In this document: positions 464 to 54,344 of the stretch, one piece after another
Numbering within the stretch: position 1 is the stretch's first letter
Layout of the letters: the number at the start of each line of letters is the position of its first letter
Source: an uncultured Rhodobacterales bacterium
Lineage (GTDB): Bacteria > Pseudomonadota > Alphaproteobacteria > Rhodobacterales > Rhodobacteraceae
Direction: 5' to 3'
DNA length: 64,000 nt
Assembly (NCBI GenBank): GCA_965368915.1
Contig: CBDUOT010000001.1
Coordinates: forward strand, 672-64,671
Notes under the pieces: generated by a model
Seen by the model: only the letters and a program-made list of their open reading frames with translations
The model's database searches: none
Told to the model about the DNA's origin: nothing
Position numbers and translations under genes: made by a program

Positions 464-1546
464 TTACGCGCCGCGACCCCGGTGGCCGGTCTTGTAGTAG
501 CTCCCGGTCCGCGTCTCGAGGTAGGGCATGAGCGGGATCTCTTCCTGCTTGAGGAACCCTTTTGAAGGCAGCGCGCCGTCGCGCACCATCTCGATCACCG
601 CGACGACGGAAGCCGAGGTCGTCCACGCGATTGCGGTGCGCCGTTTCCCCTCGATCTCCAGCGGGTAGTAGGCGCGGACGTATTCCTTCCGTCTGAGCTG
701 CCCTTCGGTCCAACCCTCGGCCGCAACGTGGACGTAGACGACGTCTTCGTCCACCGGCGGCTTCGCGTGGGTCAGGATCTTGCCCGCCATCTCGCGGTTC
801 TCGCGCATCAGAAGCTCATGGAAGAAGAAGTTCATGAGCTGGACATGACCCGGATAGCGCATCGTCTTGTAGTCAAGATTCTCGACCCGGTCGGCATAGG
901 TTTCGCACATCGTGCCAAGCCCGCCGGAGGTGGTGAAGGCTTCAAGCTTCACGCCGTCTATATAGATCGTCTCCAGCCATTCCATCGCGGACACGGTCTT
1001 GTGGACGCCTTCCTCGATCACCTCGCAGTCGTTGAGATACTCGTTCACGACGCCTTCGGGCGACCAGTTGAACGCGTAGCCGAGAAGGCCCGTGGGGTTC
1101 TGCGGCAACGCGCCGACGCGGAGGCGGATCGATCGAGCCTTCTCGAACATGTCGGCCAGATGCGCGCCGACGATGCCGACGAAGCCGGGCGCAAGTCCGC
1201 ATTGCGGGGCCATGATGCCCTTGGCGGTCTTGGCTAGTTCGCGGATATGCTGGGTGGTCGGCACGTCCTCGGTGAGGTCGAAATAATGCAGGCCAAGGCC
1301 ATGCGCGACGGTCGAAATACCGATGTTCAGGTGATACGGCAGGCAGGAAAGAACGGCCTCCTGATCCTTCAGAATGCCTTTCAGACTCTCGGTATCTGTC
1401 AGATCGGCGACCACGACCGGGAAAGGGCAGCCCGAAACCGGGCGGGCGTCCACGCCGGTCACTTCGAACCCCGCCCCTGAAAGAAGTTCTGCCGCAAGAT
1501 GCCCTACCTTACCGAGCCCAAGCACCGCAATTTTTCTGAATGACAT
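464..1546 (-). CDS. Saccharopine dehydrogenase-fold NAD(P) oxidoreductase, putative L-lysine 6-dehydrogenase
   Basis: 360-aa ORF with an N-terminal Rossmann motif KIAVLGLGKVGHLAA. Size and fold fit the saccharopine/lysine dehydrogenase family. It is the last gene of an operon with ALDH7, glutaryl-CoA dehydrogenase and an aminotransferase. The substrate call comes from context only. Confidence 0.65.
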   Translation of the reverse strand: MSFRKIAVLGLGKVGHLAAELLSGAGFEVTGVDARPVSGCPFPVVVADLTDTESLKGILKDQEAVLSCLPYHLNIGISTVAHGLGLHYFDLTEDVPTTQHIRELAKTAKGIMAPQCGLAPGFVGIVGAHLADMFEKARSIRLRVGALPQNPTGLLGYAFNWSPEGVVNEYLNDCEVIEEGVHKTVSAMEWLETIYIDGVKLEAFTTSGGLGTMCETYADRVENLDYKTMRYPGHVQLMNFFFHELLMRENREMAGKILTHAKPPVDEDVVYVHVAAEGWTEGQLRRKEYVRAYYPLEIEGKRRTAIAWTTSASVVAVIEMVRDGALPSKGFLKQEEIPLMPYLETRTGSYYKTGHRGRGA

Positions 1547-1739
1547 CGATACTCTCCTCTTCCGGTCTTGCGTCCAGTCGACCGGTTTCGATTGCTCTCA
1601 TCGTCACATTCGCCTTAGGCGTTGGCGATTTCTCCGGTCATTCCGACGAAATTCGCGCTATTGCGCTAATAAGTGACGGCCCGGCGCGCCATTTCGACGT
1701 GCCGGGCCGCAAAGCAATTCAAGGTGAATCAGAGCCGAT

Positions 1740-3239
1740 TCAAAAGTCGAACTTCACACCCTGCGCCAGAGGCAGCTCAGCCGAGTAGTTCACCGTGTTC
1801 GTCTGCCGCCGCATGTAGCCCTTCCAGGCGTCCGAGCCGCTTTCGCGACCGCCGCCGGTTTCCTTCTCGCCGCCGAACGCACCGCCGATCTCTGCGCCCG
1901 AGGGGCCGATATTGACGTTGGCGATGCCGCAATCGGAACCCGTGGCCGACAGGAAGGTCTCGGCCTCGCGCATGTTCAGGGTGAAAATGCACGAAGACAG
2001 GCCTTGCGGCACGTCGTTGTGCAGCGCGATCGCCTCATCAAGCGTTTCGTAGCCCAGTACGTAGAGGATTGGGGCGAAGGTTTCGGTCCGCACCGTCTCG
2101 GTCTGTTCAGGCATCTCCGCAACGGCGGGAGAGACATAGGCGCCACCCTGCGGCACGCCTTCCGCCACGACCTTGCCCCCGTGAACCATCCCGCCTTCGG
2201 ATTTCGCCTTCTCCAGCGCCGCCTGCATCCGGTCGCGTGACGCGTGGTCAATGAGCGGGCCAACGAGAACGCCTTCCTTGCGTGGGTCGCCGATGGGCAG
2301 GGACGCATAGGCCTTGGTCAGCTTCGCCACCAGATCATCCCTGATCGAATTGTGGACGATCAGTCGGCGAAGCGACGTGCAGCGCTGCCCAGCGGTCCCG
2401 ACGGCCGAAAAGACGATCGCGCGCACTGCCATGTCGAGATCAGCCGAGGGCGCTACGATCATCGCGTTGTTGCCGCCGAGTTCAAGGATCGGGCGACCGA
2501 AACGCGCCATGACCTTCGGACCGACAATTGACCCCATGCGGGTCGAACCGGTGGCCGAGACGATCGGTACGTCCTTGGACTCTACCAGAGCCTCGCCAAT
2601 AGCGGGCCCGCCGACGACCAGCTGGCAAAGCCCCTCGGGTGCGTCTCCGAAGCGCATGAGCGCGCGTTCCATGATCTTCATCGTCGCCATAGCGGTCAGC
2701 GGTGTCTTTTCGGACGGTTTCCAGATCACCGGGTTGCCGCAGATCAGTGCGAGCGCCGCGTTCCACGACCAGACCGCAACCGGGAAATTGAAGGCAGTGA
2801 TAACCGCGCAGGGGCCAAGCGGGTGCCAGGTTTCCATCATCCGGTGGCCGGGGCGTTCAGACGCGATGGTCAACCCGTAGATCTGCCGCGAAAGCCCAAC
2901 GGCAAAATCGCAGATGTCGATCATCTCCTGCACTTCGCCGAGGCCTTCCGACGTGATCTTGCCAGCTTCCAGCGTCACGACGGCACCCAACGCTTCCTTG
3001 GAAGCGCGCAGTTCTTCGCCCAGCAGGCGGACAAGTTCACCCCGGCGAGGGGCGGGAACCTGTCGCCACGCCTTGAAGGCTTCCTGCGCCTGCGCGATCA
3101 CCTTCGGCATGTCAGCCGGGTCGGTTTCGCGGACTTTGGCCACTTCCGCCCCGTCAATCGGCGAATGCACCACAAGCGTCCCGCCCGTCAGCTCCGATTT
3201 TGAAAGGCCCGCGGCCTTCAGCACGTCGTCATGCGTCAT
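1740..3239 (-). CDS. amaB: ALDH7-type aldehyde dehydrogenase (alpha-aminoadipic semialdehyde / piperideine-6-carboxylate dehydrogenase)
   Basis: 499 aa. It has the ELGGNNAMIV catalytic-Glu region, GQRCTSLRRL catalytic Cys, and the antiquitin-like C-terminus GGEKETGGGRESGSDAWKGYMRRQTNTVNY. Confidence 0.85.
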   Translation of the reverse strand: MTHDDVLKAAGLSKSELTGGTLVVHSPIDGAEVAKVRETDPADMPKVIAQAQEAFKAWRQVPAPRRGELVRLLGEELRASKEALGAVVTLEAGKITSEGLGEVQEMIDICDFAVGLSRQIYGLTIASERPGHRMMETWHPLGPCAVITAFNFPVAVWSWNAALALICGNPVIWKPSEKTPLTAMATMKIMERALMRFGDAPEGLCQLVVGGPAIGEALVESKDVPIVSATGSTRMGSIVGPKVMARFGRPILELGGNNAMIVAPSADLDMAVRAIVFSAVGTAGQRCTSLRRLIVHNSIRDDLVAKLTKAYASLPIGDPRKEGVLVGPLIDHASRDRMQAALEKAKSEGGMVHGGKVVAEGVPQGGAYVSPAVAEMPEQTETVRTETFAPILYVLGYETLDEAIALHNDVPQGLSSCIFTLNMREAETFLSATGSDCGIANVNIGPSGAEIGGAFGGEKETGGGRESGSDAWKGYMRRQTNTVNYSAELPLAQGVKFDF

Positions 3240-3240
3240 G

Positions 3241-4278
3241 TCAGTCTCCCTTGATGACGGAGGTCCGCTGATCTTCCATTCCCATGGAGACCAAGAGCGG
3301 CTCCGCCTGTTGGCGCGTTTGAAAATCAGTCTTGGAGCCCATACCGCGCCAGTCCGAAAGGATCAGGGACTGGGCGACGGCCCCGCCCAGCGTCGTGCCG
3401 GGGCCTGTGATGATGAAAAGGTCGGGCGCGAATTCGCGCGCCGCGATCCGGATCGCATGGGTGAAATCGTAGGTCTCGGTCACTTGGTGCCCCAAAGTGT
3501 AGTCCCAGAGCGCATCGACATCGGTCGCACCGGGCCACCAGATGGCGCCACGCCCGTCGATCAGTGGCAATTCGGGCTGACCGAAGAGCGAGGGTGAGAG
3601 CCGCGCGCGGCCACGCTCAGCGACCGGTGTCTGAAGCTGCGAATGAAATGCGGCGTGATTGGCCAGTCGCATCGGGAATCGACCCTGTACCTGCGGAACG
3701 GCGACTTCGAACGCGGTCAAACCCGCTTCGTTACCGGCCAGAACCAGCATTCCTCCGAGGTCGATCGACAGGGTCAGAACGTGCCCCTCTCGCTTGGCAA
3801 TTTCCGTCACAAGCGCAAGTAGCTCTGCCTTGCGGCCGGGATCGGAACGCCAGTCCTCGTCCACGAACGGATAGATAAGCTGCCCACCGATCAGGGCTTC
3901 CTGCATAAGGGTGCCCATCGTGTTGGTAACCTCGAAGCCAGCTTCTGCGGAAAGCGCGCCACCACAGGCGAGCGCGGAGTACCAGCCCATCGAGTTGCCG
4001 GTTACGGCGACGACGTCGATCTTGCCGGCGTCGATGGAACGGAAATCCCCCAGCGTGGCCGCATAGATTAACGCCGAGGCATTGTCGCCCCGCGTGTGCT
4101 TCGCAACGGAATAGGTTGCTGCGCCGTCGAGAGACGATAGCGATTCTTGCCCCATACCCTCGCGAGTGCGGTCGAACGCCCCGAGAAGCGCGCGGTCGCC
4201 GAAGTGCCGCTTCAGATAGCCAAGTTCGGTCTTCGTGTAGGTGCCTCGCCCCGGGCAGATGACGACGGCGGTTCTCAT
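3241..4278 (-). CDS. FabD-like acyltransferase (malonyl-CoA:ACP transacylase superfamily) of unknown substrate
   Basis: 345 aa. The nucleophile elbow GNSMGWYSALACGG (GxSxG) and a downstream HAAFHSQL histidine match the FabD Ser-His dyad. Its start overlaps the stop of the upstream E1 gene by 4 nt (ATGA on the minus strand). Its stop is 1 nt from the amaB start. Confidence 0.7.
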   Translation of the reverse strand: MRTAVVICPGRGTYTKTELGYLKRHFGDRALLGAFDRTREGMGQESLSSLDGAATYSVAKHTRGDNASALIYAATLGDFRSIDAGKIDVVAVTGNSMGWYSALACGGALSAEAGFEVTNTMGTLMQEALIGGQLIYPFVDEDWRSDPGRKAELLALVTEIAKREGHVLTLSIDLGGMLVLAGNEAGLTAFEVAVPQVQGRFPMRLANHAAFHSQLQTPVAERGRARLSPSLFGQPELPLIDGRGAIWWPGATDVDALWDYTLGHQVTETYDFTHAIRIAAREFAPDLFIITGPGTTLGGAVAQSLILSDWRGMGSKTDFQTRQQAEPLLVSMGMEDQRTSVIKGD

Positions 4279-6464
4279 TTCGCCCCTCCGACCATCGACA
4301 TTGCAACATCGTAGATGCCGTCTGCGGACGGCATCGTGGCGGCATAGGCCGGGCCTGTCGCGATGAAGCTGTCTTCGGCGGTCAGGCGGGCATGTGGCAC
4401 ATCGGCGCGCTCGGTGAAAAGCGCCATGAGCGCTTCTGCGATGCCGCCGGATCGGCGTGTTTCGTCAACGATCAGGATGCGCTCTGCCCCGCCCACGGCC
4501 TGGATCAACGCGTCCGCGGGCAAGGGCGACAGCCAGCGCATGTCGATCACCCGAGCCTTGACGCCGCTTTCGGCAAGCCGCCGTTCAGCCTGCCGCGAAA
4601 GATAATAGCCGTTCCCAAACGTCACGATTGCAAGATCTTTGCCGTCGCCGTGCACCCCGACCTCGCCCAGCGAAATCACCTCATTTTGGGCAGGATAGAC
4701 ACTCATCCAGCCGCCATCCTTCTCTGCGTGAAGGTCCCGCATGGGGTAAAGCGCGATGGGCTCCAGGAATACCACGACCCGCTGCTCCTCCCGCGCAAGG
4801 CGCACGCTTTCGCGCAGCATCCTCGCCGCGTCCGCGCCGTTCGATGGGCATGCGAAGATCACTCCGGGGATGTCGCGGATCACGGCGACCGAGTTGTCGT
4901 TATGGAAGTGACCACCAAAGCCCTTCTGATAGCCAAGCCCCGCAATCCTGAGGACCATAGGATTCGTAAACTGACCGTTCGAGAAGAAGGGTAAGGTCGC
5001 CGCCTCGCCCCTGATCTGATCCTCCGCATTGTGCAGGTAGGCGAGGAACTGAATCTCCGGCATCGGAACGAAGCCGTTCTGCGCCATGCCGATGGCGAGG
5101 CCGAGGATCGACTGTTCGTCGAGAAGCGTGTCGATCATGCGGTCCGGCCCGAAGCGCTGGGTGAGCTTCTGGGTCACACCGTAGACGCCCCCTTTCCGGC
5201 CGACGTCCTCGCCCATCATCACGATCTCGGGGTGTTCCAGCATCAGGTCGGTCAGCGCCCAATTGATAAGCCGCGACATGATCTGGGGCTCTTTCATCGC
5301 CTTGAGGTCGCTGCCAAACGCAGCTTCCCGCGCCTCGGCTGCGGGCCCGTTGGTCGGGCGGCAAGCCCGCTTGGGTGGGATCAGGCTCGCCATGACATCA
5401 TTGGCCGTCTTCAGTCTTGGCCTTTTCACCGCCTCGCCAGCGATCCGCGTTACACGGGCATTCGTCTCCTTGTAGATCCTGAGCGCACCTTCGGGCGCCA
5501 GCGCACCGGCCTGATCCATCAGCCGAACCGAATGCAGAAGCGGGTCGTTCGCCTCCTCGGCTTCGACCTCATCTCGGCTGAGATAGGTTGTGGGGACGTC
5601 AGCGCCCGCATGACCGTAAAGACGTACGGTGCCGACGTGCAGGAATGCCGGCTTTTTCCGCGTGCGGACGTAATGCGCGGCTTCCGACGCCACCCGGAAC
5701 GTCTCGTAGATATCCAACCCGTTGCAATGGAAGTATTTAAGCCCCGGCCGATTTTGAAAGGTGGCTGCGATCCAGCCGGTCGGCGTCTTCGTCGAAATCC
5801 CGATCCCGTTGTCTTCGCAGACGAAGAGAAGCGGCAGGGGGATCGACTGATAAGCAGTCCACTGCGCGGTGTTGAACGCCCCTTGCGCAGTAGAGTGGTT
5901 TGCCGATGCGTCACCGAATGAGCAGTAAACGATAGCATCCTCAGACATCGACTGATGTTCAGGCTTGTGCCGCCGCGCCGCGCCGATTGCGTAGGCGGCC
6001 CCTACCGCTTTCGGCAGGTGCGAGGCGATGGTCGATGTCTGAGGCGGGATGTTCAGAGCCTTGGAACCAAGAACCTTGTGCCGTCCGCCGGAAATGGGGT
6101 CGTCCGACGAGGCCGCGAAGCTCAGAAGCATGTCCCAGGCAATGGACTGGCCGGGAACCTGCCCCGCGCGCGCGATCTGAAAGGCCGCGTCCCGGTAGTG
6201 CAGAAACGCCATGTCGGTGGGGCGCAGGGCCGTAGCCACAGCCGCCATACCCTCATGCCCGGACGAGCCGATCGTATAGAACCCTTGCCCGGCCTTCTGC
6301 ATTGCGCGGCTTTCCCGGTCGAGCGCACGGCTCAGGCAGGCCGCACGGTAGATCGCGACCGCGTCGACAGGCGCAAGCGGGCCGGATGGGGGCGCACCGG
6401 CCGGAAGATCAGCCGCCGCGACACGCCTCAGGAAGTTTTCGTGAACGATCTCGGCGCGGTCCAT
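4275..6464 (-). CDS. Fused thiamine-diphosphate-dependent 2-oxoacid dehydrogenase E1 component (alpha and beta subunits in one polypeptide)
   Basis: 729 aa. The N-terminal half carries the TPP-binding motif GDASANHSTAQGAFNTA...CEDNGIGIS. The C-terminal half (INWALTDLMLEHPEIVMMGEDVG...DTLLDEQSILGLAIGMA) is a transketolase-like pyrimidine-binding / E1-beta module. Confidence 0.8.
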   Translation of the reverse strand: MDRAEIVHENFLRRVAAADLPAGAPPSGPLAPVDAVAIYRAACLSRALDRESRAMQKAGQGFYTIGSSGHEGMAAVATALRPTDMAFLHYRDAAFQIARAGQVPGQSIAWDMLLSFAASSDDPISGGRHKVLGSKALNIPPQTSTIASHLPKAVGAAYAIGAARRHKPEHQSMSEDAIVYCSFGDASANHSTAQGAFNTAQWTAYQSIPLPLLFVCEDNGIGISTKTPTGWIAATFQNRPGLKYFHCNGLDIYETFRVASEAAHYVRTRKKPAFLHVGTVRLYGHAGADVPTTYLSRDEVEAEEANDPLLHSVRLMDQAGALAPEGALRIYKETNARVTRIAGEAVKRPRLKTANDVMASLIPPKRACRPTNGPAAEAREAAFGSDLKAMKEPQIMSRLINWALTDLMLEHPEIVMMGEDVGRKGGVYGVTQKLTQRFGPDRMIDTLLDEQSILGLAIGMAQNGFVPMPEIQFLAYLHNAEDQIRGEAATLPFFSNGQFTNPMVLRIAGLGYQKGFGGHFHNDNSVAVIRDIPGVIFACPSNGADAARMLRESVRLAREEQRVVVFLEPIALYPMRDLHAEKDGGWMSVYPAQNEVISLGEVGVHGDGKDLAIVTFGNGYYLSRQAERRLAESGVKARVIDMRWLSPLPADALIQAVGGAERILIVDETRRSGGIAEALMALFTERADVPHARLTAEDSFIATGPAYAATMPSADGIYDVAMSMVGGAK

Positions 6465-6505
6465 GCTCTCACCTGCTTGCCTTTACCTTGTTTGAGCAAT
6501 GGAAC

Positions 6506-7714
6506 TCAGAAAAACGCCTGAAGCCCCGTGATCGCGCGCCCGAGGATAAGCGCATGCACGTCGTGCGTGCCTTCGTAGGTGTTCACGGTTTCAAGGTTCA
6601 TCGCATGGCGCATGATCTGGAACTCCTCCTGAATACCGTTCCCGCCATGCATGTCGCGCGCCATCCGGGCGATATCCAAGGCCTTGCCGCAATTGTTGCG
6701 CTTGACGATAGAGATCATCTCGGGCGCGGCCTTTGCCTCGTCCATCAACCGACCGACACGCAAGCTGGCCTGCAGGCCGAGCGATATCTCCGTCATCATG
6801 TCGGCCAACTTCTTTTGGTAGAGCTGGGTCTGTGCCAACGGACGATTGAACTGCTTCCGGTCGAGACCGTATTGCCGGGCGGCATGCCAGCAGAACTCGG
6901 CCGCACCCAAAACGCCCCAGGAAATGCCGTAGCGCGCCCGGTTTAGACAGCCGAACGGCCCTTTCAGACCCTCGACATTCGGCAACAGGGCGTCCTCGCC
7001 GACCTCGACATTCTCCATTACGATCTCGCCCGTAATCGAGGCGCGAAGCGAGAGTTTCCCGCCGATCTTTGGCGCGGACAGACCCTTCATTCCCTTGTCG
7101 AGCACGAAACCACGGATCTTGCCACCATGGGCATCGGACTTCGCCCACACAACGAAGACGTCCGCGATGGGGGCATTCGAGATCCACATCTTCGACCCGT
7201 TCAGGACGTAGCCGCTTTCAGTCTTCGTCGCGCGGGTTTTCATACCCGCCGGGTCCGAGCCTGCGTCGGGTTCGGTCAGGCCGAAGCAGCCTATGAATTC
7301 GCCTGATGCCAGTTTAGGCAGGTATTTCTTCCGCTGCTCCTCGGATCCGTAGGCATAGATCGGATACATCACCAGCGAGGACTGCACAGACATCATCGAC
7401 CGATAGCCACTGTCGACGCGCTCCACCTCGCGCGCAACGAGCCCGTAGGAGACATAGGAGGCGCCGATCCCGCCGTACTCTTCCGGGACCGTGACGCCGA
7501 GCAGCCCCATTTCTCCCATTTCGCGAAAGATGTCGGGATCGGTCGTCTCTTCTCGATACGCGTCGATGACGCGGGTCTGAAGCTTCTCCTGCGCGTAAGC
7601 GCGCGCACCGTCGCGCAGCATTCTCTCTTCTTCCGAAAGCTGATCATCGAGTCGGAAGGCATCTTCCCAGTCAAAGCGCGACAGGTCGGGGGCGTCTTTG
7701 GGTTTCAAAGCCAT
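6506..7714 (-). CDS. gcdH: Glutaryl-CoA dehydrogenase
   Basis: 402-aa acyl-CoA dehydrogenase with the GcdH-typical N-terminus [32 protein letters not shown] and the C-terminal motif [18 protein letters not shown]. Confidence 0.85.
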
Positions 7715-7721
7715 GGGGTCC

Positions 7722-8927
7722 TCATCTGAGCGATGCGCAGAAACGCGCGATTCGGTTTGATGCCTCGTTCAGGGAGGCGTGGGAATAGGCGTAAGAGAGC
7801 CGAACGTGGCCCGGTGTACCAAAGGCACGGCCGGGGACGAGCGCCACGCCTTCTTCTTCAAGCAGAGCTTCGCAGAAATCCGCATCAGTCTCGATTCGTC
7901 GGCCCCTCGCAGTGGTTTTGCCAAAGGCCGCTGTGCAATCCGGGAACAGATAGAAAGCGCCGTCGGCAGTATCGCATTGGAGGATCCCACTCGTGTTGAG
8001 CCGTTCCGCCAGCATGTCCCGGCGCGCGCGGAAGTCGTCGCACCTTTCCGCGAGAAGCTGCTGGTCGCCAGTCAGAGCGGCAGCGGCGGCAGCCTGACTG
8101 ACAGAAGTTGCGCCAGAAGTGATCTGGCTCTGAATCGCAAGCATCGCCGCGGTCAGACGCTTTGGTCCGATCCCCCAACCGATGCGCCAGCCGGTCATTG
8201 CGTAGCTCTTGGACACACCATTCACGATCAGCGTCCTGTCGGCCAAGTCAGGCGCGACGGCGCGGAAGGAATGGAAGGGAACATAAGAAATGTGCTGGTA
8301 GATCTCATCGATCATGATGCCGACATGCGGTGCGTCGCGCAGAACGTCCGCAAGCGCTTCAAGATCGTCCTTTGAGTAAACCGCACCGGACGGATTGGAC
8401 GGTGAGTTTAGCAGCAGCCATCGCGTCCTAGGCCCGATTGCGGCGCGAAGCTGCTCTGGCGTGACGCGAAAGCCGGTGTCTGCGGTTGTTGGAAGCACAA
8501 CCGGCTTACCGTCGCAGACCGTGATAATGTCGGGATAGCTTGTCCAGTAGGGCGCGACGATCAGAACCTCGTCTCCGGGGTCAAGCGTTGCCGCGAATGC
8601 GTTGTATAGAACCTGCTTTGCGCCGGTGCAGACTATGATTTCACCGATTTCAGGCTTGTAGCCGCTCTCCCGCTGGCAAGCTTCGGCAATGGCGCTGCGA
8701 AGCTCGATCGTCCCGGCGGTGAGCGTATAGATCGTCTCACCTGCCAAGGCGGCCTCGTGCGCCGCCTCGATCACATGCGAAGGCGTGGGGAAGTCCGGTT
8801 CCCCGGTGCCGAGCGTAATGACGTCGCGGCCTTCTCGCTGCAGCGCTTCTGCCAATTCGGAAATCTTCAGGATCTCTGAAAGCTCAACCGCGTTGATGCG
8901 CGCAGAGCGGCGGAACGGATCGGACAT
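7722..8927 (-). CDS. Class I/II pyridoxal-phosphate aminotransferase (aspartate-aminotransferase-like; candidate 2-aminoadipate transaminase)
   Basis: 401 aa with the NSPSNPSG motif and PLP-lysine motif [12 protein letters not shown]. First gene of the lysine-catabolic operon. The substrate is inferred from context. Confidence 0.8.
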
Positions 8928-9021
8928 GGCGCGGACTCACTTAGCCTTTTATGCATTATGGGCCATTGTTCCTGCCATTGGGATCGCTATTCTCACGCTA
9001 TTATATGCATGGAGCTCATAC
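8928..9021. promoter_or_regulatory. Divergent promoter/operator region between the lysine operon and its LysR regulator
   Basis: This is a locally AT-rich stretch in a high-GC genome. It contains direct repeats GCCATTG (8962-8968 and 8974-8980) and two ATGCAT motifs (8951-8956 and 9005-9010). No binding has been demonstrated. Confidence 0.35.
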
Positions 9022-9939
9022 TTGGCGACGCCCCGACGGCTTCTTCCGTCCATCTCTCTGCTTACGGCCTTTGAGTCGGTGATCCGCACCGGTTCGACGC
9101 TTGCGGCGGCGCAGGACCTCGACCTGACGCAAGGCGCGGTCAGCCGTTTGATACAGAACCTCGAGTCGCAACTCGGCGTAACTCTTTTTCTCCGCGAAAG
9201 GCGAAGGCTGGTGCCGACTGACCATGCGCTGGCTTATGCACGCGACGTCGCAAAAGCACTTGATCTGATCTCGCGGGGTTCTATGCGCGTTCGGTCCAGC
9301 ACAGGGGGCGGAACCTTGTCCTTGGCGATCCTGCCGACGTTCGGCACCCGCTGGCTGGCACCGCGGCTGCCGCGGTTCCTGGCCGAGCATCCGGGCATCA
9401 CGATCAATCTTGGGACGCGCCTCAAACCCTTCGATTTTGAAGAAGAAGGATACGATGCGGCGATCCACTACGGAGAACAGAATTGGGCTGGAACAGGGTC
9501 TATAAAGCTCTTTGATGAGCGGCTCGTGGCATGTTGTGCGCCGTCGTTTCTTGCCAAGCAGTCCGTCTCTTCCGCGCGGGACCTGATCGGCTTTCCCCTC
9601 TTGCAGCTCGAAACGCGCCCGAACGCCTGGTCGTCTTGGTTTTCCCATCACGGCGTCACCGAGAACGTGCCCCAAGGCATGCTCTTCGACCAATTCGCCC
9701 CGATGATTCAGGCGGTTATCCACGGGCTCGGCGTCGCGTTGCTGCCCGAATTCCTCGCCAAGCCCGAGCTTGCCGAGGGGCGTCTTGTTGAAATCCTTGG
9801 GGGATCGGTCCGGGGTGAGGGAAGCTATTACCTTGTCTGGCCCTCTGTCGGGGCATGGTATCCGCCGCTTCAAGCCTTTCGCGACTGGCTTCAGACGGAA
9901 GCTGCCGACCCGGACGGGACAGAGATGCTGCCCCGTTGA
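9022..9939 (+). CDS. LysR-family transcriptional regulator (GcvA-like)
   Basis: The HTH region reads LLPSISLLTAFESVIRTGSTLAAAQDLDLTQGAVSRLIQNLESQLGVTLFLR and is followed by a LysR substrate-binding domain. The track ORF starts at 8785, but that extension is antisense to the aminotransferase gene. I favour in-frame TTG 9022 (305 aa). ATG 8926 is the alternative. Confidence 0.8.
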   Translation: MATPRRLLPSISLLTAFESVIRTGSTLAAAQDLDLTQGAVSRLIQNLESQLGVTLFLRERRRLVPTDHALAYARDVAKALDLISRGSMRVRSSTGGGTLSLAILPTFGTRWLAPRLPRFLAEHPGITINLGTRLKPFDFEEEGYDAAIHYGEQNWAGTGSIKLFDERLVACCAPSFLAKQSVSSARDLIGFPLLQLETRPNAWSSWFSHHGVTENVPQGMLFDQFAPMIQAVIHGLGVALLPEFLAKPELAEGRLVEILGGSVRGEGSYYLVWPSVGAWYPPLQAFRDWLQTEAADPDGTEMLPR

Positions 9940-10531: not shown

Positions 10532-10674
10532 AAGCAAAGGCTATTTTCGTTCACATATCCCCCTAGAGAATTGTGCGAGATAACGGGATTTCCTTGATAG
10601 CGGATTCTATTCCGACATATTGACAGCACAGCAAGGGCGAGGCATTGTTCCGCCATATCGGAGGAGTTTCTGTA

Positions 10675-11865
10675 ATGCCGGAAAACACCGCTTTCCTCGA
10701 CCATCTGACCGGAGTACTCGGCGGAATCGAAGCTGATGGCCTTTACAAGCGCGAGCGGCTGATCTCCTCAGCGCAAGGAGCGCACGTTAAGGTCGCCGGG
10801 CGCGATATGCTGAACCTTTGCGCGAACAACTACCTCGGATTGGCCAACCATCCGAAGCTGATCGAGGCGGCCAAGTCCGCGATGGACGATCACGGCTACG
10901 GCATGGCCTCGGTCCGGTTCATTTGCGGCACTCAGGACCTGCACCGGCAGCTCGAGGACCGGATCGCCCGATTCCTCGGAAAGGACGATTCCATACTCTT
11001 CGCCGCCTGTTTCGATGCGAATGGCGGCTTGTTCGAGCCTCTCCTCGGACCCGAGGACGCGGTGATATCGGACGCGCTGAACCACGCCTCGATCATCGAC
11101 GGCATTCGCCTCTGCAAGGCCAAGCGCTATCGCTACGCGAACTCAGACATGGCGGATCTGGAGACGCAGCTGAAAGCCGCGCGGAATGACGGCGCGCGCT
11201 TCGTCATGATCGCGACGGACGGCGTCTTTTCAATGGACGGATACCTCGCGAAACTGCCCGAGATTGTGGCGCTTGCCGAAAAGTACGGTGCACTCGTGAT
11301 GGTCGACGACTGTCACGCGACCGGCTTCATGGGTCCGAAGGGCGCGGGCACGCCCGCCCATGCGGGGGTCGATGTCGATATCCTGACCGGCACGCTCGGT
11401 AAGGCCTTGGGCGGGGCCCTTGGCGGCTACATCGCCGGCCCGCAGCCCGTCATCGACCTTCTGCGCCAGCGCGCACGGCCCTACCTCTTCTCGAACGCAC
11501 TGCCGCCCGCTGTGGTCGCCGCAGGGATTGCGGCCATCGACCTTGTGGAAGCGGCGGACGATCTGCGCACGCAGCTGTTTGAGAATGCCCGTTACTGGCG
11601 CGCGGGACTTGAGGATGCCGGCTTCACGCTTCTTCCCGGTGAGCATCCCATCATTCCGGTCATGCTGGGCGATGCGAAGCTGGCGCAGGCCATGGCGACA
11701 GAACTTTATGACCGCGGCGTCTATGTCTCGGGCTTCTTCTTCCCGGTCGTCCCGAAGGGGCAGGCGCGCATCCGCACACAAATGAATGCGCGGCTCAGCC
11801 GCGACGATCTCGATTTCGCGCTCGGTGCTTTCAAAAGCGCGGGCAAAGCCGTGGGGGCGATCTGA
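10675..11865 (+). CDS. kbl: Glycine C-acetyltransferase (2-amino-3-ketobutyrate CoA ligase)
   Basis: ATG 10675 is preceded by GGAGGA. Alpha-oxoamine synthase family: [18 protein letters not shown], and PLP-Lys region [10 protein letters not shown]. Immediately followed by tdh. Confidence 0.88.
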
Positions 11866-12902
11866 TGCGCAACGACATGAAGACGTTGGTGAAGGCGAAG
11901 CCGGAGCCGGGGCTTTGGATGGAGCATCGCGCGGTCCCCGAGATCGGGCCGGACGACGTCCTGATCCGCATTCGCAAGACCGGGATCTGCGGCACCGACA
12001 TCCACATCTGGAACTGGGACGAATGGGCGGCGAAGACCGTTCCCGTGGGTCTCGTGACAGGTCACGAATTCGCGGGCGAAATCGTTGAGATCGGGCGGAA
12101 TGTCGAAGGACTGACCATCGGCCAGCGATGTTCGGGAGAAGGGCACCTGATCGGCAAGCAATCGCGTCAGAGCAGGGCGGGCAAGTTCCACCTCGACCCC
12201 GCCACCCGCGGGATCGGCGTCAACGAGCACGGCGCCTTCGCAGAGTACTTGAAGCTTCCTGCCTTCAACGTGGTGCCACTCCCCGATGAGATCGATGACG
12301 ATATCGGCGCGATCCTCGACCCCTTGGGCAACGCGGTCCACACCGCGCTGAGCTTCGATCTGGTCGGCGAGGACGTGCTGATCACCGGCGCGGGACCGAT
12401 CGGCATCATGGCCGCCGCCGTTGCCCGCCATGTCGGCGCACGGCATGTCGTCATCACCGACGTTAATCAGGACCGTCTCGATCTCGCGGCGCAGGTCACC
12501 GACGTGGTCCCGGTGAACGTCGCCAAGCAAGACCTGCGCGAAGTCGAGGGCGCGCTACGGATGAAGGAAGGCTTCGATGTGGGGCTGGAGATGTCTGGAA
12601 ACCAGGCCGCGTTCGACCAGATGGTGGAAAACCTCGTCATGGGCGGGCGGATCGCGATGCTGGGCATCCCGCCGGGCAAGTCGCCGGTCGACTGGAGCCG
12701 CATCGTCTTCAAGGCCATCACGATCAAGGGCGTGTACGGTCGCGAGATCTTCGAGACCTGGTACAAGATGATCGCGATGCTGGAAAACGGGCTCGACATC
12801 AGGAAGGTCATCACGCACCGCTTTCCTGTCGATCAGTTCCGCGATGGATTCGAGATCATGCGTTCGGGCAAAAGCGGCAAGGTCGTACTCGACTGGGGCT
12901 GA
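11865..12902 (+). CDS. tdh: L-threonine 3-dehydrogenase (zinc-dependent MDR)
   Basis: 345 aa, with [15 protein letters not shown] and [12 protein letters not shown] zinc-ADH motifs and [13 protein letters not shown] Rossmann motif. Its start overlaps the kbl stop, the classic kbl-tdh pair. Confidence 0.9.
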
Positions 12903-13010
12903 CCTCGTCGACGAAGGCTCAAGAGCTTTGACGATATGGCCGTGAATCCATTTCTGGTAAAACTGCCGTTCTTGGCACAAAAATCAATGTGACAGGATCA
13001 GGAGGGCACG

Positions 13011-13775
13011 ATGAATCAGCAAGCGAAGATTAAGCCCGGCGCGAACATGGAACATTGGCAAGCGCGCGTCGACATGGCCGCCGCCTTCCGCTGGACCGCT
13101 CGGCTGAACATGCACGAGGCGGTTGCCAACCATTTCAGCCTCGCCGTCGACGAAGATGGTTCGAAGTTCCTCATGAACCCAAACCAGGTTCATTTCAGCC
13201 GGATCAAGGCGTCGGACCTTCTGCTCCTCGATGCGAACGATCCCAAGACGATGGACCGCCCTGACGCGCCGGATCCGACCGCATGGGGGCTGCACGGCTC
13301 GATCCACCGCCTATGCCCTCATGCCCGCTGCGTGATGCACGTTCACTCGATCCACGCGACGGTGCTGGCCTGCCTGGCCGACAGTACGCTGCCGCCGATC
13401 GACCAGAACACCGCGACATTCTACGGCCGCCACGTTGTGGACGGAGATTTCGGGGGGCTTGCGTTCGAAGATGAAGGCGCACGCTGCGCGGGCATGCTGA
13501 ACGATCCGAAGATCAAGGTCATGATCATGGGCAACCACGGGGTGCTGGTGATCGGAAGCGACGTGGCCGATACGTTCAACCGGCTCTACTATTTCGAGCG
13601 CGCCGCAGAAACATACATCCGCGCGCTGCAAACGGGCCAGCCTCTGCGTGTGCTGAGCGCGGAGGTCGCGGAGAAGACCGCGCAAGAGCTTGACGACTAT
13701 CCCGATCAGGCAGAGCGGCATCTGGCCGAACTCAAGGCGATCCTGGACGACGAGGGTTCGACCTACGCCAGCTGA
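13011..13775 (+). CDS. Class II aldolase/adducin-domain protein
   Basis: 254 aa. The histidine cluster (HGSIHRLCPHARCVMHVHS) and overall pattern fit the fuculose-phosphate-aldolase-like class II aldolase fold. Confidence 0.7.
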   Translation: MNQQAKIKPGANMEHWQARVDMAAAFRWTARLNMHEAVANHFSLAVDEDGSKFLMNPNQVHFSRIKASDLLLLDANDPKTMDRPDAPDPTAWGLHGSIHRLCPHARCVMHVHSIHATVLACLADSTLPPIDQNTATFYGRHVVDGDFGGLAFEDEGARCAGMLNDPKIKVMIMGNHGVLVIGSDVADTFNRLYYFERAAETYIRALQTGQPLRVLSAEVAEKTAQELDDYPDQAERHLAELKAILDDEGSTYAS

Positions 13776-14103: not shown

Positions 14104-16572
<2,469 letters not shown>

Positions 16573-16963: not shown

Positions 16964-17626
16964 TCATTCAAGCACGCGTTCCGGATCGTTGAGCGTCGGC
17001 ACTTGCAGGCTCCATTCGTAATAGTCGCCTGATGTCGATCTCTGATAGAGGCGCTCAAGGTCGTGCAGTGGTGTCTTGCTATCATCGATTCGCAGGGTCA
17101 ACGGCGCGCGATCCGGCGAAAGTACGAGAAGCGCCGCTGACATAAGCCCGCGAGAGTCTCCTCCTGACTCATCGCCTGCCTTCAAGGCCTTCAGCAGTCG
17201 GCGCGCGAAGCAGCCTTCGGCAGCAAGAAAGCTCTCCGCGATCGCGTCGAGCACGGCTTCGGACGAAAGCAGGTTGCCCGTAACCACGCCACCTTGGACG
17301 AATCGGCTGCCCATCGCTGGTGTGTTCTGCTTCCCGGTGAAGGCTGCGACCCGACCGTCCGGTGAAAGTGCGGCGAGTTGCCGATACTCGCGCCCGCGAT
17401 CCGCCTCCGTCTCGGCATCAACAGCCTCTTGCGGAGAGCGCCCAGCGCGCATCGACTCGAGCACCGCTTCACCCCAGAGCGTACTGGGTGCAGCCCCCTG
17501 GCTTGCGGAAAGGCCCGCGTCGAAGTGGCCTCGTAGCACCCATCCGCCCACGCATAGACTGCCGGTCGCGGCGGCACCGCCAATTGCGCCGGTTTCAGGG
17601 TCTCGCGCAAGAATCGAAAACGTCAT
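16964..17626 (-). CDS. DUF1028-family protein (Ntn-hydrolase-like fold)
   Basis: Only the last 221 codons of the 786-aa track ORF are credible: MTFSILARDPETGAIGGAAATGSLCVGGWV...GDSRGLMSAALLV. The MTFSI(L/V)ARD start is typical of DUF1028. The rest of that ORF is antisense to the ABC binding-protein gene. Confidence 0.7.
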   Translation of the reverse strand: MTFSILARDPETGAIGGAAATGSLCVGGWVLRGHFDAGLSASQGAAPSTLWGEAVLESMRAGRSPQEAVDAETEADRGREYRQLAALSPDGRVAAFTGKQNTPAMGSRFVQGGVVTGNLLSSEAVLDAIAESFLAAEGCFARRLLKALKAGDESGGDSRGLMSAALLVLSPDRAPLTLRIDDSKTPLHDLERLYQRSTSGDYYEWSLQVPTLNDPERVLE

Positions 17627-17653
17627 GTCTCTGCCGATTGCATTATGTTTCGT

Positions 17654-17696
17654 ATTTATCATGAAAAATTGACCTTTGCAATTTATCATGATAAAT
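17654..17696. promoter_or_regulatory. Tandem operator-like palindromes in the divergent DUF1028 / ABC-transporter promoter
   Basis: A perfect 16-bp palindrome ATTTATCATGATAAAT lies at 17681-17696. A one-mismatch copy ATTTATCATGAAAAAT lies at 17654-17669. The centres are 27 bp apart, in the only strongly AT-rich patch of this region. Confidence 0.45.
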
Positions 17697-17728
17697 AGGC
17701 CCGATATGCCAACTTGGGAGAAGGCCCG

Positions 17729-19306
17729 ATGAAACTCTTCAACTGGACGCGCCGGGGGCTGTTCGCCGCTGTCGGCGCCGCGCTGGCTTTGGGTATGCCT
17801 TGGCAAATGGCAGAGGCGCAGACGCCTTCGGGTGTCCTGATCGTCGGCCAGATTGCCGAACCGAAATCGCTCGACCCGGCGGCTGTGACTGCAGTGAACG
17901 ACTTCCGTATTCTCGTGAACCTGTACGAGGGATTGGTGCGCTATAAATCCGGCACACTGGAAGTCGAACCGGGGCTTGCGACCGACTGGGCGATCAGTGA
18001 GGACGGAACGGAATACACCTTCACCCTGCGCGAAGGCGTCACATTCCATGACGGAACACCTTTCAACGCCGAGGCCGTGAAGTTCAATTTCGACCGGATG
18101 CTGGATGAATCCCATCCCTTCCACGATACCGGACCTTTCCCGCTCGCCTTCTTCTTCAGCGCAGTCGAGACTACCGAAGCGGTCGACGAACTGACGGTGA
18201 AGTTCACGCTGAACGCGCCTTACGCACCGTTCCTTTCGAACCTCGCCTATCCGACGGGTCTCATCGTGTCGCCCGCCGCCGTGGAGGCGAATGGCGCCGA
18301 TTTCGGCCGCAGCCCATCCGGCACGGGACCGTTCAAGTTTGCTGAATGGAGGTCGAACGAAGCCGTCGTCATCGAGCGGAACCCGGACTACTGGGGTGAC
18401 CCGGCAGGGACGGACGCGGTTGTCTTCCGGCCGATCACCGACGCCAACACCCGCGTTGCCGAGATGCTTGCCGGTGGGATCGACATGATGGTCGAGGTGC
18501 CGCCCACGTCGCTCTCGCAGTTCGGCGGAGATGCCTTCAACATCGTCGAGCAGGCGGGCCCGCACTTGTGGTTCCTGATTCTGAACGCCAAGGAAGGGCC
18601 ATTCGCCGATCAACGCGTGCGCCAGGCCGCGAACTACGCGATCAACAAGGAAGCCATCGTCAACGACGTCCTCGAAGGCACTGCCGACGTGGCCGCCGGT
18701 CCGACGCCGCCGGCCTTCGCCTGGGCTTACAACAGCGACCTCGATCCCTATCCCTACGATCCCGAGAAAGCCAAGGCGCTTCTGGCCGAAGCAGGCGCGG
18801 AAGGCGCGTCTCTGACCTTCTACGTGACCGAGGGTGGTTCGGGCATGCTCGATCCCGTTCCGATGGGCACCGCAATTCAGGCCGATCTGGCGGCAGTCGG
18901 GCTCGATGTGAAGATCGAGACCTATGAGTGGAACACCTTCCTCGGAGAGGTGAACCCCGGCCTCGAAGGCAAAGCGGACATGGCCGAGATGGCGTGGATG
19001 ACGAATGATCCCGACACTCTGCCCTATCTCGCGCTTCGTACCGAGGCATGGCCCGACAAGGGCGGCTTCAACTCGGGCTACTATTCGAACCCCGAAGTCG
19101 ACCAGCTTCTCGAAGCCGCGCGGACCTCGACTGATCAGGAGGAGCGCGCGCGCCTTTACCGAGAGATGCAGACGATCGTGAAGGAGGATGCACCCTGGGT
19201 CTTCGTCGCAAACTGGAAACAGAACGCCGTGACCAGCGACCGCGTGGAGAACTTCCAGCTTGAGCCGTCCTTCCTGCTGCATCTGCAGGATGTGGTGAAG
19301 AACTGA
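17729..19306 (+). CDS. ABC transporter substrate-binding protein, family 5 (peptide/nickel/opine type)
   Basis: ATG 17729 follows GGGAGAAGG. Signal peptide MKLFNWTRRGLFAAVGAALALGMPWQMAEAQ, then the SBP_bac_5 pattern (LDPA...NLYEGLV...). Confidence 0.88.
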   Translation: MKLFNWTRRGLFAAVGAALALGMPWQMAEAQTPSGVLIVGQIAEPKSLDPAAVTAVNDFRILVNLYEGLVRYKSGTLEVEPGLATDWAISEDGTEYTFTLREGVTFHDGTPFNAEAVKFNFDRMLDESHPFHDTGPFPLAFFFSAVETTEAVDELTVKFTLNAPYAPFLSNLAYPTGLIVSPAAVEANGADFGRSPSGTGPFKFAEWRSNEAVVIERNPDYWGDPAGTDAVVFRPITDANTRVAEMLAGGIDMMVEVPPTSLSQFGGDAFNIVEQAGPHLWFLILNAKEGPFADQRVRQAANYAINKEAIVNDVLEGTADVAAGPTPPAFAWAYNSDLDPYPYDPEKAKALLAEAGAEGASLTFYVTEGGSGMLDPVPMGTAIQADLAAVGLDVKIETYEWNTFLGEVNPGLEGKADMAEMAWMTNDPDTLPYLALRTEAWPDKGGFNSGYYSNPEVDQLLEAARTSTDQEERARLYREMQTIVKEDAPWVFVANWKQNAVTSDRVENFQLEPSFLLHLQDVVKN

Positions 19307-19412
19307 ACGAACGGGCGGGGCCAAACACTGCGCTCCGCCCGCCCTGCGATCACCCGAAGTCTGGCGCCGTGTCTTGCAAGGGCACGTGCCCCGTTCCCTC
19401 CGGAGGCGAGAG

Positions 19413-20360
19413 GTGGGCAGCTACATATTCAAGCGACTGATCTCGGCCGTGCCCGTTTTGCTCGGTATCACGATCATCGTCTTCCTGATCATGGCTATGA
19501 TCCCGGGCGATCCGGCCACCGCGATCCTCGGCAGCTACGCGACGCCGGAAAACGTCGAGAAGCTGAACCGCGATCTCGGGCTCGATAAGCCTCTGGTTCA
19601 GCGCTACTTCATCTGGCTCGGCAACATGCTTACCGGTGACTTCGGGCGATCATTCTCGCTCAACCGACCGGTTCTGGACGAGGTGCTGGAGCGCTTCAAC
19701 GCGACGCTCATTCTTGCTGGCGTGTCCTTCGTTCTCTGCGCGGTTCTGGGCATTCTTGCCGGCGTCGTGTCGGCTGCGCGGCAATACGGGCTGGCCGACA
19801 AGGTGATTACCTTCACGGTTCTCATCGGCATCTCGGTACCGTCCTTTTTCCTCGGCATGATGATGATCCTCCTCTTCGCCGTGAACCTGCGCTGGCTGCC
19901 TGTCTCGGGCATGTACGCGATATACGGTGGGGGGGATTTGCCGGACCTTCTTTACCACCTGATAATGCCCGCGCTCGCGCTGTCCGCCGTGGCCACCGGG
20001 GTCATCGCGCGCCTCTCGCGCTCCGCGATGCTGGAGGTGCTCCGGCAGGACTACATCCGCACGGCGCGCGCCAAGGGCGTTCCGGAACGGCGGGTGATCA
20101 TGGGTCACGCCCTTCGTGCCGCCATGGTCTCGATCATTCCGATTCTGGGCATCCAGGCGGGCTTTGTCCTGTCGGGCGCGGTCTACATCGAGATCGTATT
20201 CCAGTGGCCCGGCGTGGGCCGCATGCTTGTCGATGCAATCCTCAAGCGTGACATCCTGCTGGTTCAGGGCGGCGTGGTCCTCGTCGCGGCCTGCTACGTG
20301 ATGTTCAACATCGCAGTCGATGTCGCCCAAAGCCTTCTCGACCCAAGGATCAAGACGTGA
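19413..20360 (+). CDS. ABC transporter permease (DppB/OppB-like)
   Basis: A GTG 19413 start gives (M)GSYIFKRLISAVPVLLGITIIVFLIM, the canonical DppB N-terminus. The EAA-loop region is YIRTARAKGVPERRVIMGHALR. TTG 19374 is the alternative start. Confidence 0.85.
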   Translation: MGSYIFKRLISAVPVLLGITIIVFLIMAMIPGDPATAILGSYATPENVEKLNRDLGLDKPLVQRYFIWLGNMLTGDFGRSFSLNRPVLDEVLERFNATLILAGVSFVLCAVLGILAGVVSAARQYGLADKVITFTVLIGISVPSFFLGMMMILLFAVNLRWLPVSGMYAIYGGGDLPDLLYHLIMPALALSAVATGVIARLSRSAMLEVLRQDYIRTARAKGVPERRVIMGHALRAAMVSIIPILGIQAGFVLSGAVYIEIVFQWPGVGRMLVDAILKRDILLVQGGVVLVAACYVMFNIAVDVAQSLLDPRIKT

Positions 20361-28146: not shown

Positions 28147-28168
28147 AATCAATAAACCGGGGGGGACT

Positions 28169-54326: not shown

Positions 54327-54344
54327 AACGACCGAAAGCCGGTG

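Follow-up and report, generated by a model that had tools for sequence, protein, structure and literature searches.

The window analyzed here is a 64,000-nucleotide stretch of DNA from an uncultured Rhodobacterales bacterium (GenBank assembly GCA_965368915.1, contig CBDUOT010000001.1, positions 672 to 64,671), and it carries a lysine-catabolism operon in which two overlapping genes probably perform the conversion of 2-oxoadipate to glutaryl-coenzyme A (glutaryl-CoA). The first gene codes for E1f, a thiamine diphosphate (ThDP)-dependent 2-oxoacid dehydrogenase E1 component with its alpha and beta parts in one chain, and the second for FabDl, an acyltransferase-like protein with a predicted FabD fold and a Ser-His dyad. 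The explanation that we tentatively favor as a whole is that E1f and FabDl carry out this reaction with a borrowed lipoyl arm, FabDl passing the glutaryl group to CoA. What E1f acts on, which protein donates the lipoyl arm, where and in which direction the acyl group is transferred, and whether the two proteins form a physical complex are points that we infer.

The operon occupies positions 464-8927 on the minus strand of the window. Its tightly packed genes code, in order of transcription, for an aminotransferase, an acyl-CoA dehydrogenase, the 729-amino acid E1f, the 345-amino acid FabDl, an aldehyde dehydrogenase, and a protein with the saccharopine dehydrogenase fold (Table 1). The aminotransferase is presumed to convert 2-aminoadipate to 2-oxoadipate. 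The acyl-CoA dehydrogenase is, judged by sequence comparison, the canonical decarboxylating glutaryl-CoA dehydrogenase (GcdH), which would consume the predicted product of the pair. The aldehyde dehydrogenase, AmaB, starts 1 nucleotide past the FabDl stop codon and scored 823 bits against the NF050084 equivalog model, which has a cut-off of 730. The last gene has as its top PDB match the P. horikoshii protein PH1688 (3abi; remote, 2e-15), which we take to be an L-lysine dehydrogenase, and its product is a probable L-lysine 6-dehydrogenase (LysDH). Together these enzymes would take lysine through 2-aminoadipate semialdehyde and 2-aminoadipate to 2-oxoadipate, and then glutaryl-CoA to crotonyl-CoA. 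From established pathway knowledge, 2-oxoadipate to glutaryl-CoA would be the sole step left for E1f and FabDl. An earlier note on this DNA, made from the sequence alone, had described a lysine operon in which only this step was missing. Both statements agree with the assignments: AmaB above its cut-off, a GCDH structure match at the 1e-185 level, and a remote LysDH-like match, with the other steps falling to the LysDH-like protein, AmaB, the aminotransferase, and GcdH.

E1f proved to be the single-chain enzyme with an intact cofactor motif and a transketolase-like beta module that the earlier note had reported. The three Pfam domains looked for, E1_dh (residues 40-350, 8.7e-31), Transket_pyr (398-571, 1.7e-22), and Transketolase_C (600-717, 7.7e-19), were all detected, and residues 184-220 contain the unbroken ThDP motif GDAS...EDNG. 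Among solved structures, E1f is closest to alpha2beta2 E1s, those of T. thermophilus (1um9, chains A and B) and the human branched-chain 2-oxoacid dehydrogenase (BCKDH; 1dtw), and the identity between E1f and characterized E1s is about 30%. The three domains and the ThDP motif are common to E1f and the BCKDH and pyruvate dehydrogenase (PDH) E1s (1UM9, 1DTW, and 1W85 from G. stearothermophilus), and so are two histidines, His285, which aligns with His291 of human E1b-alpha, and His521, which aligns with His128 of the G. stearothermophilus E1-beta subunit. In alpha2beta2 E1s these two residues serve the reductive acylation of lipoamide. As it keeps the ThDP motif and the two catalytic histidines, E1f looks, as far as sequence can tell, like a working lipoamide-using E1. 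Unlike the alpha2beta2 enzymes, it combines alpha and beta in one chain and has no adjacent genes for a cognate dihydrolipoyl acyltransferase (E2) or dihydrolipoyl dehydrogenase (E3), and it has Ala where the mitochondrial enzymes are phosphorylated, at Ser292. No match to 2-oxoglutarate dehydrogenase (OGDH) or DHTKD1 was found; the PDB and NCBIfam relatives were all alpha/beta-type E1s, DXS, or transketolase. In public databases E1f is annotated generically as 'thiamine pyrophosphate-dependent enzyme', JGI names it '2-oxoisovalerate dehydrogenase E1 component', and many NCBI records of metagenome-assembled genomes call it 'MFS transporter', which is an evident propagated annotation error.

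FabDl has the motifs GNSMG (residues 94-98) and AFHSQ (210-214), the GxSxG serine and FHS histidine by which the earlier note had assigned it to the FabD superfamily. The Acyl_transf_1 domain expected from that assignment was not detected, and Pfam reported no family for the protein even at E ≤ 10. The relationship was found by other means. The NCBIfam model TIGR00128 (fabD) matched at 1.5e-11 with 44.3 bits (cut-off, 260.9), mdcH matched at 2e-10, far under its cut-off, and the FabD sequences in the PDB were matched at 2.4e-8 by FabDl alone and at 2e-19 by a profile of its family. An AlphaFold2 (AF2) model built from a 55-member family alignment reached a predicted local distance difference test (pLDDT) score of 96.9; a single-sequence model, with a pLDDT of 35, was discarded. 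Foldseek aligned the former with FabD at query TM-scores of 0.69-0.76, target TM-scores of 0.77-0.85, E of about 1e-17, and 17-21% identity. All of the first 14 hits and the majority of the first 50 were FabD or malonyl-CoA:acyl carrier protein (ACP) transacylase structures, and the remainder were acyltransferase (AT) domains of polyketide synthases. According to the model, FabDl has the two-subdomain FabD fold. Its family comprises 154 clusters at 50% identity (E ≤ 1e-30), with members of 330-380 amino acids; none of the clusters has a precomputed Pfam domain, and where the source gives a name it is mostly 'ACP S-malonyltransferase'.

The active site was compared by aligning the 55 family members onto E. 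coli FabD (1MLA/2G2Z) with hmmalign, the result of which agreed with HMMER pairwise alignments; an alignment made by adding E. coli FabD with MAFFT --add was rejected, Ser92 being out of register. The equivalents of the FabD Ser92-His201 dyad are Ser96, conserved in 55 of 55 members, and His212, conserved in 53. The GxSxG and PGxG motifs are common to both proteins, and FabD Gln250 is kept as Gln265. Other positions differ. FabD Arg117, the residue that binds the malonyl carboxylate, corresponds to Met121 in FabDl and is Met in 39, Thr in 9, and Arg in none of the 55 sequences. Gln11, of the oxyanion hole, is Arg11 in 53 of 55, and His91 is Asn95. The ACP-docking residues of the E. coli enzyme, which we take to be K189, R190, K286, and R287, are gapped, variable, or replaced by Ala or Gly. 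The family also has conserved residues of its own, a conserved C-terminal extension about 40 residues long, and a ThDP E1 as genomic context instead of fab genes. Having lost Arg117 and the ACP-docking residues and scoring under the cut-offs, FabDl is not, by these sequence comparisons, a member of the malonyl-CoA:ACP transacylases, and the name 'ACP S-malonyltransferase' is probably wrong for it because the Arg117 position is never Arg in the family. An acyl-O-serine intermediate is very probably still part of FabDl catalysis, as the conserved residues indicate. Speculatively, Arg11 at the oxyanion-hole position could bind a longer dicarboxylate.

The start of FabDl overlaps the stop of E1f by 4 nucleotides (ATGA, positions 4278-4275), as the earlier note had read it, and GGAGG lies 6 nucleotides before the ATG. 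A scan of one genome per species gave matches in at least 598 species genomes, and the best 80 loci were used in the neighbor analyses. In every one of these 80 loci with room on the contig, E1f was directly upstream of FabDl, and the 4-nucleotide overlap was kept in 77 of 82 related loci. Five distant clades (33-45% identity) also have a fused E1 of 720-756 amino acids immediately upstream, with overlapping stop and start. In three assemblies of marine eukaryote-like contigs, a single open reading frame runs from the C-terminal domain of E1f through a linker rich in Pro and Ser into FabDl; the same architecture was found in two further homologues at 55-60% identity, and the fusion gene stands head-to-head with a GCDH homologue (47% identity). 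Because gene order, coupling, and fusion combine, a physical and functional partnership of the two proteins is, from these sequence data, very likely, and the pair can be regarded as a genuine, ancient, conserved, and translationally coupled unit. The fusion contigs (related loci L085, 6400-9788 on the plus strand, L086, and L087) have septin, SAP-metacaspase, and ART-domain neighbors and a GC content of 63%, and one comes from a TARA sample. Another apparent fusion, P0131, was not used: its E1-beta segment jumps into mid-FabDl, and it looks like a chimera or misassembly.

An unbiased census, in which all open reading frames within 6 kb of the pair were clustered across the 80 loci, connected it to lysine catabolism. 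The commonest neighbor was a divergent upstream LysR regulator (46/80), followed by AmaB (43/80), GcdH upstream of the pair (33/80), a syntenic LysDH (26/80), an aminotransferase (20/80), and a DAO-family oxidase (16/80), the last cluster being judged AmaA-like, by sequence, from its Ruegeria member. The other large clusters were antisense shadows of those genes, and no CoA-transferase, E2, E3, lipoyl protein, or ACP was found among the conserved neighbors. At least one of four markers (AmaB, GcdH, LysDH, and aminotransferase) lay within 8 kb in 36 of the 52 loci whose sequence extends 4 kb or more to each side of the pair, and 17 of the same 52 had aminotransferase homologues upstream of the pair. 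Minimal modules were also present: GcdH-E1f-FabDl in Shewanella aestuarii and aminotransferase-GcdH-E1f-FabDl in Ruegeria THAF33.

No candidate for a dedicated E2 or E3 was found. The earlier note had stated that the cluster encodes neither a lipoyl-bearing E2 nor an E3, and none was detected in the whole window or in 88 related loci. Pfam searches of the larger open reading frames across the 64-kb window gave no E2, E3, lipoyl protein, ACP, HglS, or CoA-transferase, and scans of the whole window with regular-expression motifs for E2, E3, lipoyl, and ACP gave chance matches inside unrelated frames only. A tblastn search of the 88 loci (1.58 Mb), with the E. coli lipoyl domains, SucB catalytic domain, GcvH, AcpP, and Lpd as queries, gave nothing but Lpd-like matches, in L002 and L006 and, over a short stretch of 36 residues, in L047; an E2, a lipoyl protein, or an ACP was not among them. 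The gene in L002 (16551-18704) and L006 (about 17305-18669) codes for a 717-amino acid fusion of a DedA/VTT domain and a pyridine-nucleotide disulfide oxidoreductase, situated about 3 kb beyond LysDH in these closest relatives and behind proline racemase and TetR genes; it was rejected as the E3 of the pair and is probably unrelated to it. Housekeeping E2 and E3 are nearly universal, and for this reason their absence from the locus is only weak evidence for a lipoyl-free system. Since E1f keeps both reductive-acylation histidines, chemistry wholly without lipoate is less likely than the borrowing of a lipoyl carrier in trans, by analogy with human DHTKD1. The human enzyme, the E1a of the 2-oxoadipate dehydrogenase complex, shares DLST (E2o) and DLD (E3) (PMC9367764; 10.1101/2020.01.20.912931). 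It has the same pathway position up to GCDH and is likewise a dedicated E1 without an E2 and E3 of its own. Unlike E1f, a single-chain BCKDH/PDH-type alpha and beta fusion, DHTKD1 is a homodimeric OGDH-type protein of about 900 amino acids, and it has no FabD-like partner. Genomic context is what speaks for a preference of E1f for 2-oxoadipate and for its use of a shared E2 and E3.

The following sequence of events would account for these observations. E1f would bind ThDP, decarboxylate 2-oxoadipate, and, as alpha2beta2-type E1s do, reductively move the glutaryl group onto the dihydrolipoyl arm of a housekeeping lipoyl protein or E2 in trans. FabDl, made 1:1 with E1f, would probably dock on it, and its Ser96-His212 dyad would take over the glutaryl thioester as glutaryl-O-Ser96 and hand it to CoA. 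In this manner FabDl would do what a dedicated E2 does with its catalytic core, and it would keep the borrowed lipoyl arms free. The arm would be re-oxidized by the housekeeping E3, mirroring DHTKD1 with DLST and DLD, and the glutaryl-CoA would pass to the adjacent GcdH. The role of FabDl as the CoA-transferring component is, taken separately, a possibility that we put forward with reserve.

Several observations weigh against this explanation. The argument of the earlier note that FabD enzymes handle a dicarboxylic (malonyl) group does not transfer to FabDl, the Arg117 position being Met121 and Arg in none of the 55 family members. As a rule, an E1 is selective for its own lipoyl domain. From sequence, transfer to CoA and hydrolysis cannot be told apart, and no fitness or biochemical paper on the pair was found in the literature searches. 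Orthologues that share 48-50% identity with E1f are found unaccompanied by FabDl in Legionella and Nonomuraea. In Legionella adelaidensis (NZ_LR134418.1; L083, 7998-11370), the E1f orthologue (49% identity) overlaps by 23 nucleotides the GcdH orthologue that comes after it (50% identity), and no FabD-like gene was found at that locus. In Nonomuraea gerenzanensis, E1f has kinase, CorA, and ABC transporter genes as neighbors, and its 11.85-Mb record gave no FabDl match at E ≤ 1e-10. Because E1f orthologues occur without it, FabDl is apparently not universally required; E1f can apparently work without a partner, and FabDl may be accessory. As for gene context, 16 of the 52 close loci had none of the four lysine markers within 8 kb. 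The one marker-less locus examined, L067 of Ruegeria, has a LysR gene and a pipecolate oxidase that resembles AmaA (413 bits; cut-off, 600). An upstream acyl-CoA dehydrogenase considered in Ruegeria as a second GcdH was LCAD-like and not GCDH. The five distant clades have no lysine or glutaryl-CoA neighbors, being accompanied by EamA, an AlkA-like protein, and a glycosyltransferase, by FAA-hydrolase and luciferase-like genes, or by a peptide-binding protein. Two loci at 33-35% identity, L088 (5731-11110) and L090 (5749-11134), have the nucleophile motif ASSTG or GSSIG, not GNSMG, and the genes beside their pair code for an EamA transporter, a protein like AlkA/HhH-GPD, and a glycosyltransferase of the EryCIII/MGT-like kind, which suggests a different substrate or role in that clade. 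The expectation that the pair would track lysine and glutaryl-CoA genes was therefore borne out largely in the lineage of the window (36/52) and not in the five distant clades, and the pair is best seen as a generic two-gene module, presumably dedicated to 2-oxoadipate in the window's lineage. What stood of the earlier interpretation is the conserved coupled pair, its slot in the lysine operon, and the lack of an E2 or E3 nearby; the malonyl argument and the Acyl_transf_1 assignment did not stand, and the partner-less E1f orthologues count against it.

FabDl could instead be a repair enzyme attached to a classical borrowed complex. The housekeeping E2 core would then make glutaryl-CoA, E3 would be shared, and FabDl would strip stalled glutaryl or wrong groups from the dihydrolipoyl arms, protecting the tricarboxylic acid cycle or PDH complex during lysine growth in the way of ABHD11 or of the FabD-fold hydrolases of trans-AT polyketide synthases. 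We consider this unlikely. It would explain the E1f orthologues in genomes or loci without FabDl, and a protein that lacks Arg117 and the ACP-docking residues fits a substrate that is neither malonyl nor ACP-bound. FabD-fold hydrolases exist, and PksD (8avz), presumably one of them, is among the profile matches. A precedent is the human Ser-His enzyme ABHD11, a mitochondrial glutaryl-lipoyl thioesterase that is needed since the 2-oxoadipate and 2-oxoglutarate dehydrogenase complexes share an E2, on which glutaryl-lipoyl adducts otherwise persist (PMC12643935). Of the known systems, ABHD11 comes closest in function to an additional serine enzyme that attends to the 2-oxoadipate step, by analogy only; unlike FabDl, it has an alpha/beta-hydrolase fold, hydrolyzes its substrate without accepting CoA, and is not genetically linked or fused to an E1. 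Nonetheless, transfer to CoA is favored over hydrolysis because hydrolysis would yield glutarate, and the conserved neighbors include no glutarate CoA-transferase or ligase to activate it, while GcdH, which needs glutaryl-CoA, is present. Transfer is also favored because the coupling and the fusion in some contigs suggest a stoichiometric catalytic partner, and because the family profile is closer to the FabD transacylases than to PksD (1.5e-9).

The remaining alternatives concern the carrier, the substrate, and the partnership itself. In a system free of lipoyl proteins, Ser96 would take the acyl group from an oxidized 2-acyl-ThDP, or from a small dithiol or disulfide carrier, and deliver it to CoA, with FabDl replacing the whole E2 in a self-sufficient machine. 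The 88 loci without a nearby E2, lipoyl protein, or E3, the occurrence of the two genes by themselves in varied surroundings, and the fusion in eukaryote-like contigs are what such a machine would look like, but neither protein has an oxidant or redox cofactor domain, both lipoamide histidines are retained in E1f, some E1f orthologues lack FabDl, and the near universality of housekeeping E2 and E3 makes absence from the locus weak evidence, so that we regard it as improbable. It is also quite unlikely that the pair acts on another 2-oxoacid, or as a broad-specificity 2-oxoacid-to-acyl-CoA module for which a place in the lysine operon is not diagnostic of 2-oxoadipate. The unrelated neighbors in distant clades, the marker-less fraction of close loci, and the branched-chain and pyruvate enzymes among the closest solved E1s all speak for that possibility. 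On the other side, every conserved neighbor in the window and in most close relatives fits catabolism of lysine to glutaryl-CoA, GcdH adjacency recurs in Shewanella, in Legionella (E1f only), and in the eukaryote-like contigs, and an identity of only about 30% does not allow the specificity of characterized E1s to be transferred. Finally, FabDl would be a true malonyl-CoA:ACP transacylase, or a glutaryl-CoA:ACP transacylase for BioZ-type biotin synthesis, merely co-located with an E1. Its public name, its fold, and the use by Alphaproteobacteria of glutaryl-CoA from lysine catabolism for biotin (PMC7645780) agree with this. However, FabDl scores 44 bits against a TIGR00128 cut-off of 261 and has no Pfam match, Arg117 is absent in 55 of 55 sequences, the ACP-docking residues are unconserved, no acpP or fab genes were found nearby, the partnership with E1f is strict and extends to fusion, and the pair is also present beyond the Alphaproteobacteria, in Shewanella and the eukaryote-like contigs. 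This last alternative is highly improbable.

The earlier note had stated that no characterized pairing of an E1 with a FabD-like protein was known. Full-text literature searches, GapMind supplements included, also returned no description of such a pair, and a 2-oxoacid dehydrogenase system with a fused E1 and a FabD-fold partner that would stand in for the dedicated E2 has no described precedent in the literature searched. The conversion of 2-oxoadipate to glutaryl-CoA is known in mammals and was said not to have been observed in bacteria (10.1101/450254). In Pseudomonas putida and plants, 2-oxoadipate from lysine is handled by HglS (DUF1338) (10.1101/450254; 10.1101/2020.01.30.927905), an Fe(II) oxygenase that addresses the same 2-oxoadipate fate as the pair and makes D-2-hydroxyglutarate without a CoA thioester; the Pfam search found no DUF1338 match among the scanned open reading frames of the window. 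The module would supply the bacterial 2-oxoadipate step with a non-orthologous E1 and fill a gap in reconstructions of lysine catabolism for many Rhodobacterales, Sphingomonadales, Hyphomicrobiales, and others. If FabDl does move the acyl group to CoA, a FabD-fold serine enzyme would be doing the work of an E2 catalytic core, and there would be a parallel to the glutaryl-clogged shared E2 arms that ABHD11 clears in human cells. Were the E2-free machine the right explanation, it would be an undescribed 2-oxoacid dehydrogenase architecture found across alpha- and gammaproteobacteria and other bacterial clades and fused in marine eukaryote-like contigs. Thousands of database entries name the partner 'ACP S-malonyltransferase' and some name the E1 'MFS transporter', and both are probably wrong.

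Table 1. Genes and sites of the lysine operon and landmark genes of the window.
Feature	Position	Strand	Basis
Class I/II aminotransferase, 401 amino acids	7722..8927	-	Pfam Aminotran_1_2 1.2e-71; first operon gene, 7 nucleotides before gcdH
Glutaryl-CoA dehydrogenase GcdH, 402 amino acids	6506..7714	-	phmmer against PDB: Burkholderia GCDH 3gnc 2.9e-185; human GCDH 1sir 6.8e-172
Fused E1 alpha-beta ThDP enzyme E1f, 729 amino acids	4275..6464	-	Pfam E1_dh, Transket_pyr, Transketolase_C
E1f/FabDl coupling junction	4275..4289	-	GGAGG 4289-4285, 6-nucleotide spacer, ATGA 4278-4275
FabD-fold Ser-His acyltransferase-like FabDl, 345 amino acids	3241..4278	-	Remote FabD homology, predicted fold
AmaB, L-piperideine-6-carboxylate (2-aminoadipate semialdehyde) dehydrogenase, 499 amino acids	1740..3239	-	NCBIfam NF050084
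Saccharopine-dehydrogenase-fold protein, 360 amino acids	464..1546	-	Pfam Sacchrp_dh_NADP and Sacchrp_dh_C
LysR-family regulator, divergent upstream of operon	8785..9939 (reading frame as listed)	+	Pfam HTH_1 and LysR_substrate
gyrB (housekeeping landmark)	14134-16572		
Large-subunit catalase (housekeeping landmark)	37659-39770		
DXP synthase (housekeeping landmark)	54342-56261		Preceded by polyprenyl synthetase
Glutamate synthase large subunit, part (housekeeping landmark)	61092-63980		

The operon proteins have their closest relatives in Defluviimonas/Albidovulum (Paracoccaceae), with 85-89% identity. Since the helix-turn-helix of the divergent LysR regulator begins at residue 92 of the listed reading frame, its real start, as read from the sequence, is probably near 9040. 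The minus strand has a promoter-like site at 9028-9000 that matches the consensus only weakly, and a promoter and terminator scan gave a site count no higher than in shuffled sequence. Beyond LysR, positions 10645-13775 (plus strand) code for a class I/II aminotransferase (406 amino acids), a Zn-dependent alcohol dehydrogenase (345 amino acids), and a class II aldolase/adducin-family protein (254 amino acids). In the closest relatives (L002, L004-L006, L009, and L011), this second aminotransferase and the alcohol dehydrogenase are found at the same place with respect to the lysine operon, and both may belong to an extended regulon.

Three other reading frames of the window have unusual architectures. 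At the level of open reading frames, an ABC permease is fused to an ATPase with an oligo_HPY domain (20357-22240, plus strand, 627 amino acids), and a response-regulator receiver is fused to an EamA transporter (28007-29719, plus strand, 570 amino acids). The latter fusion may be an artefact of the longest-frame call overlapping the end of an upstream hybrid histidine kinase. A 786-amino acid frame on the minus strand (16964-19324) matches DUF1028 in its C-terminal 190 residues only, its long N-terminal part giving no Pfam match.

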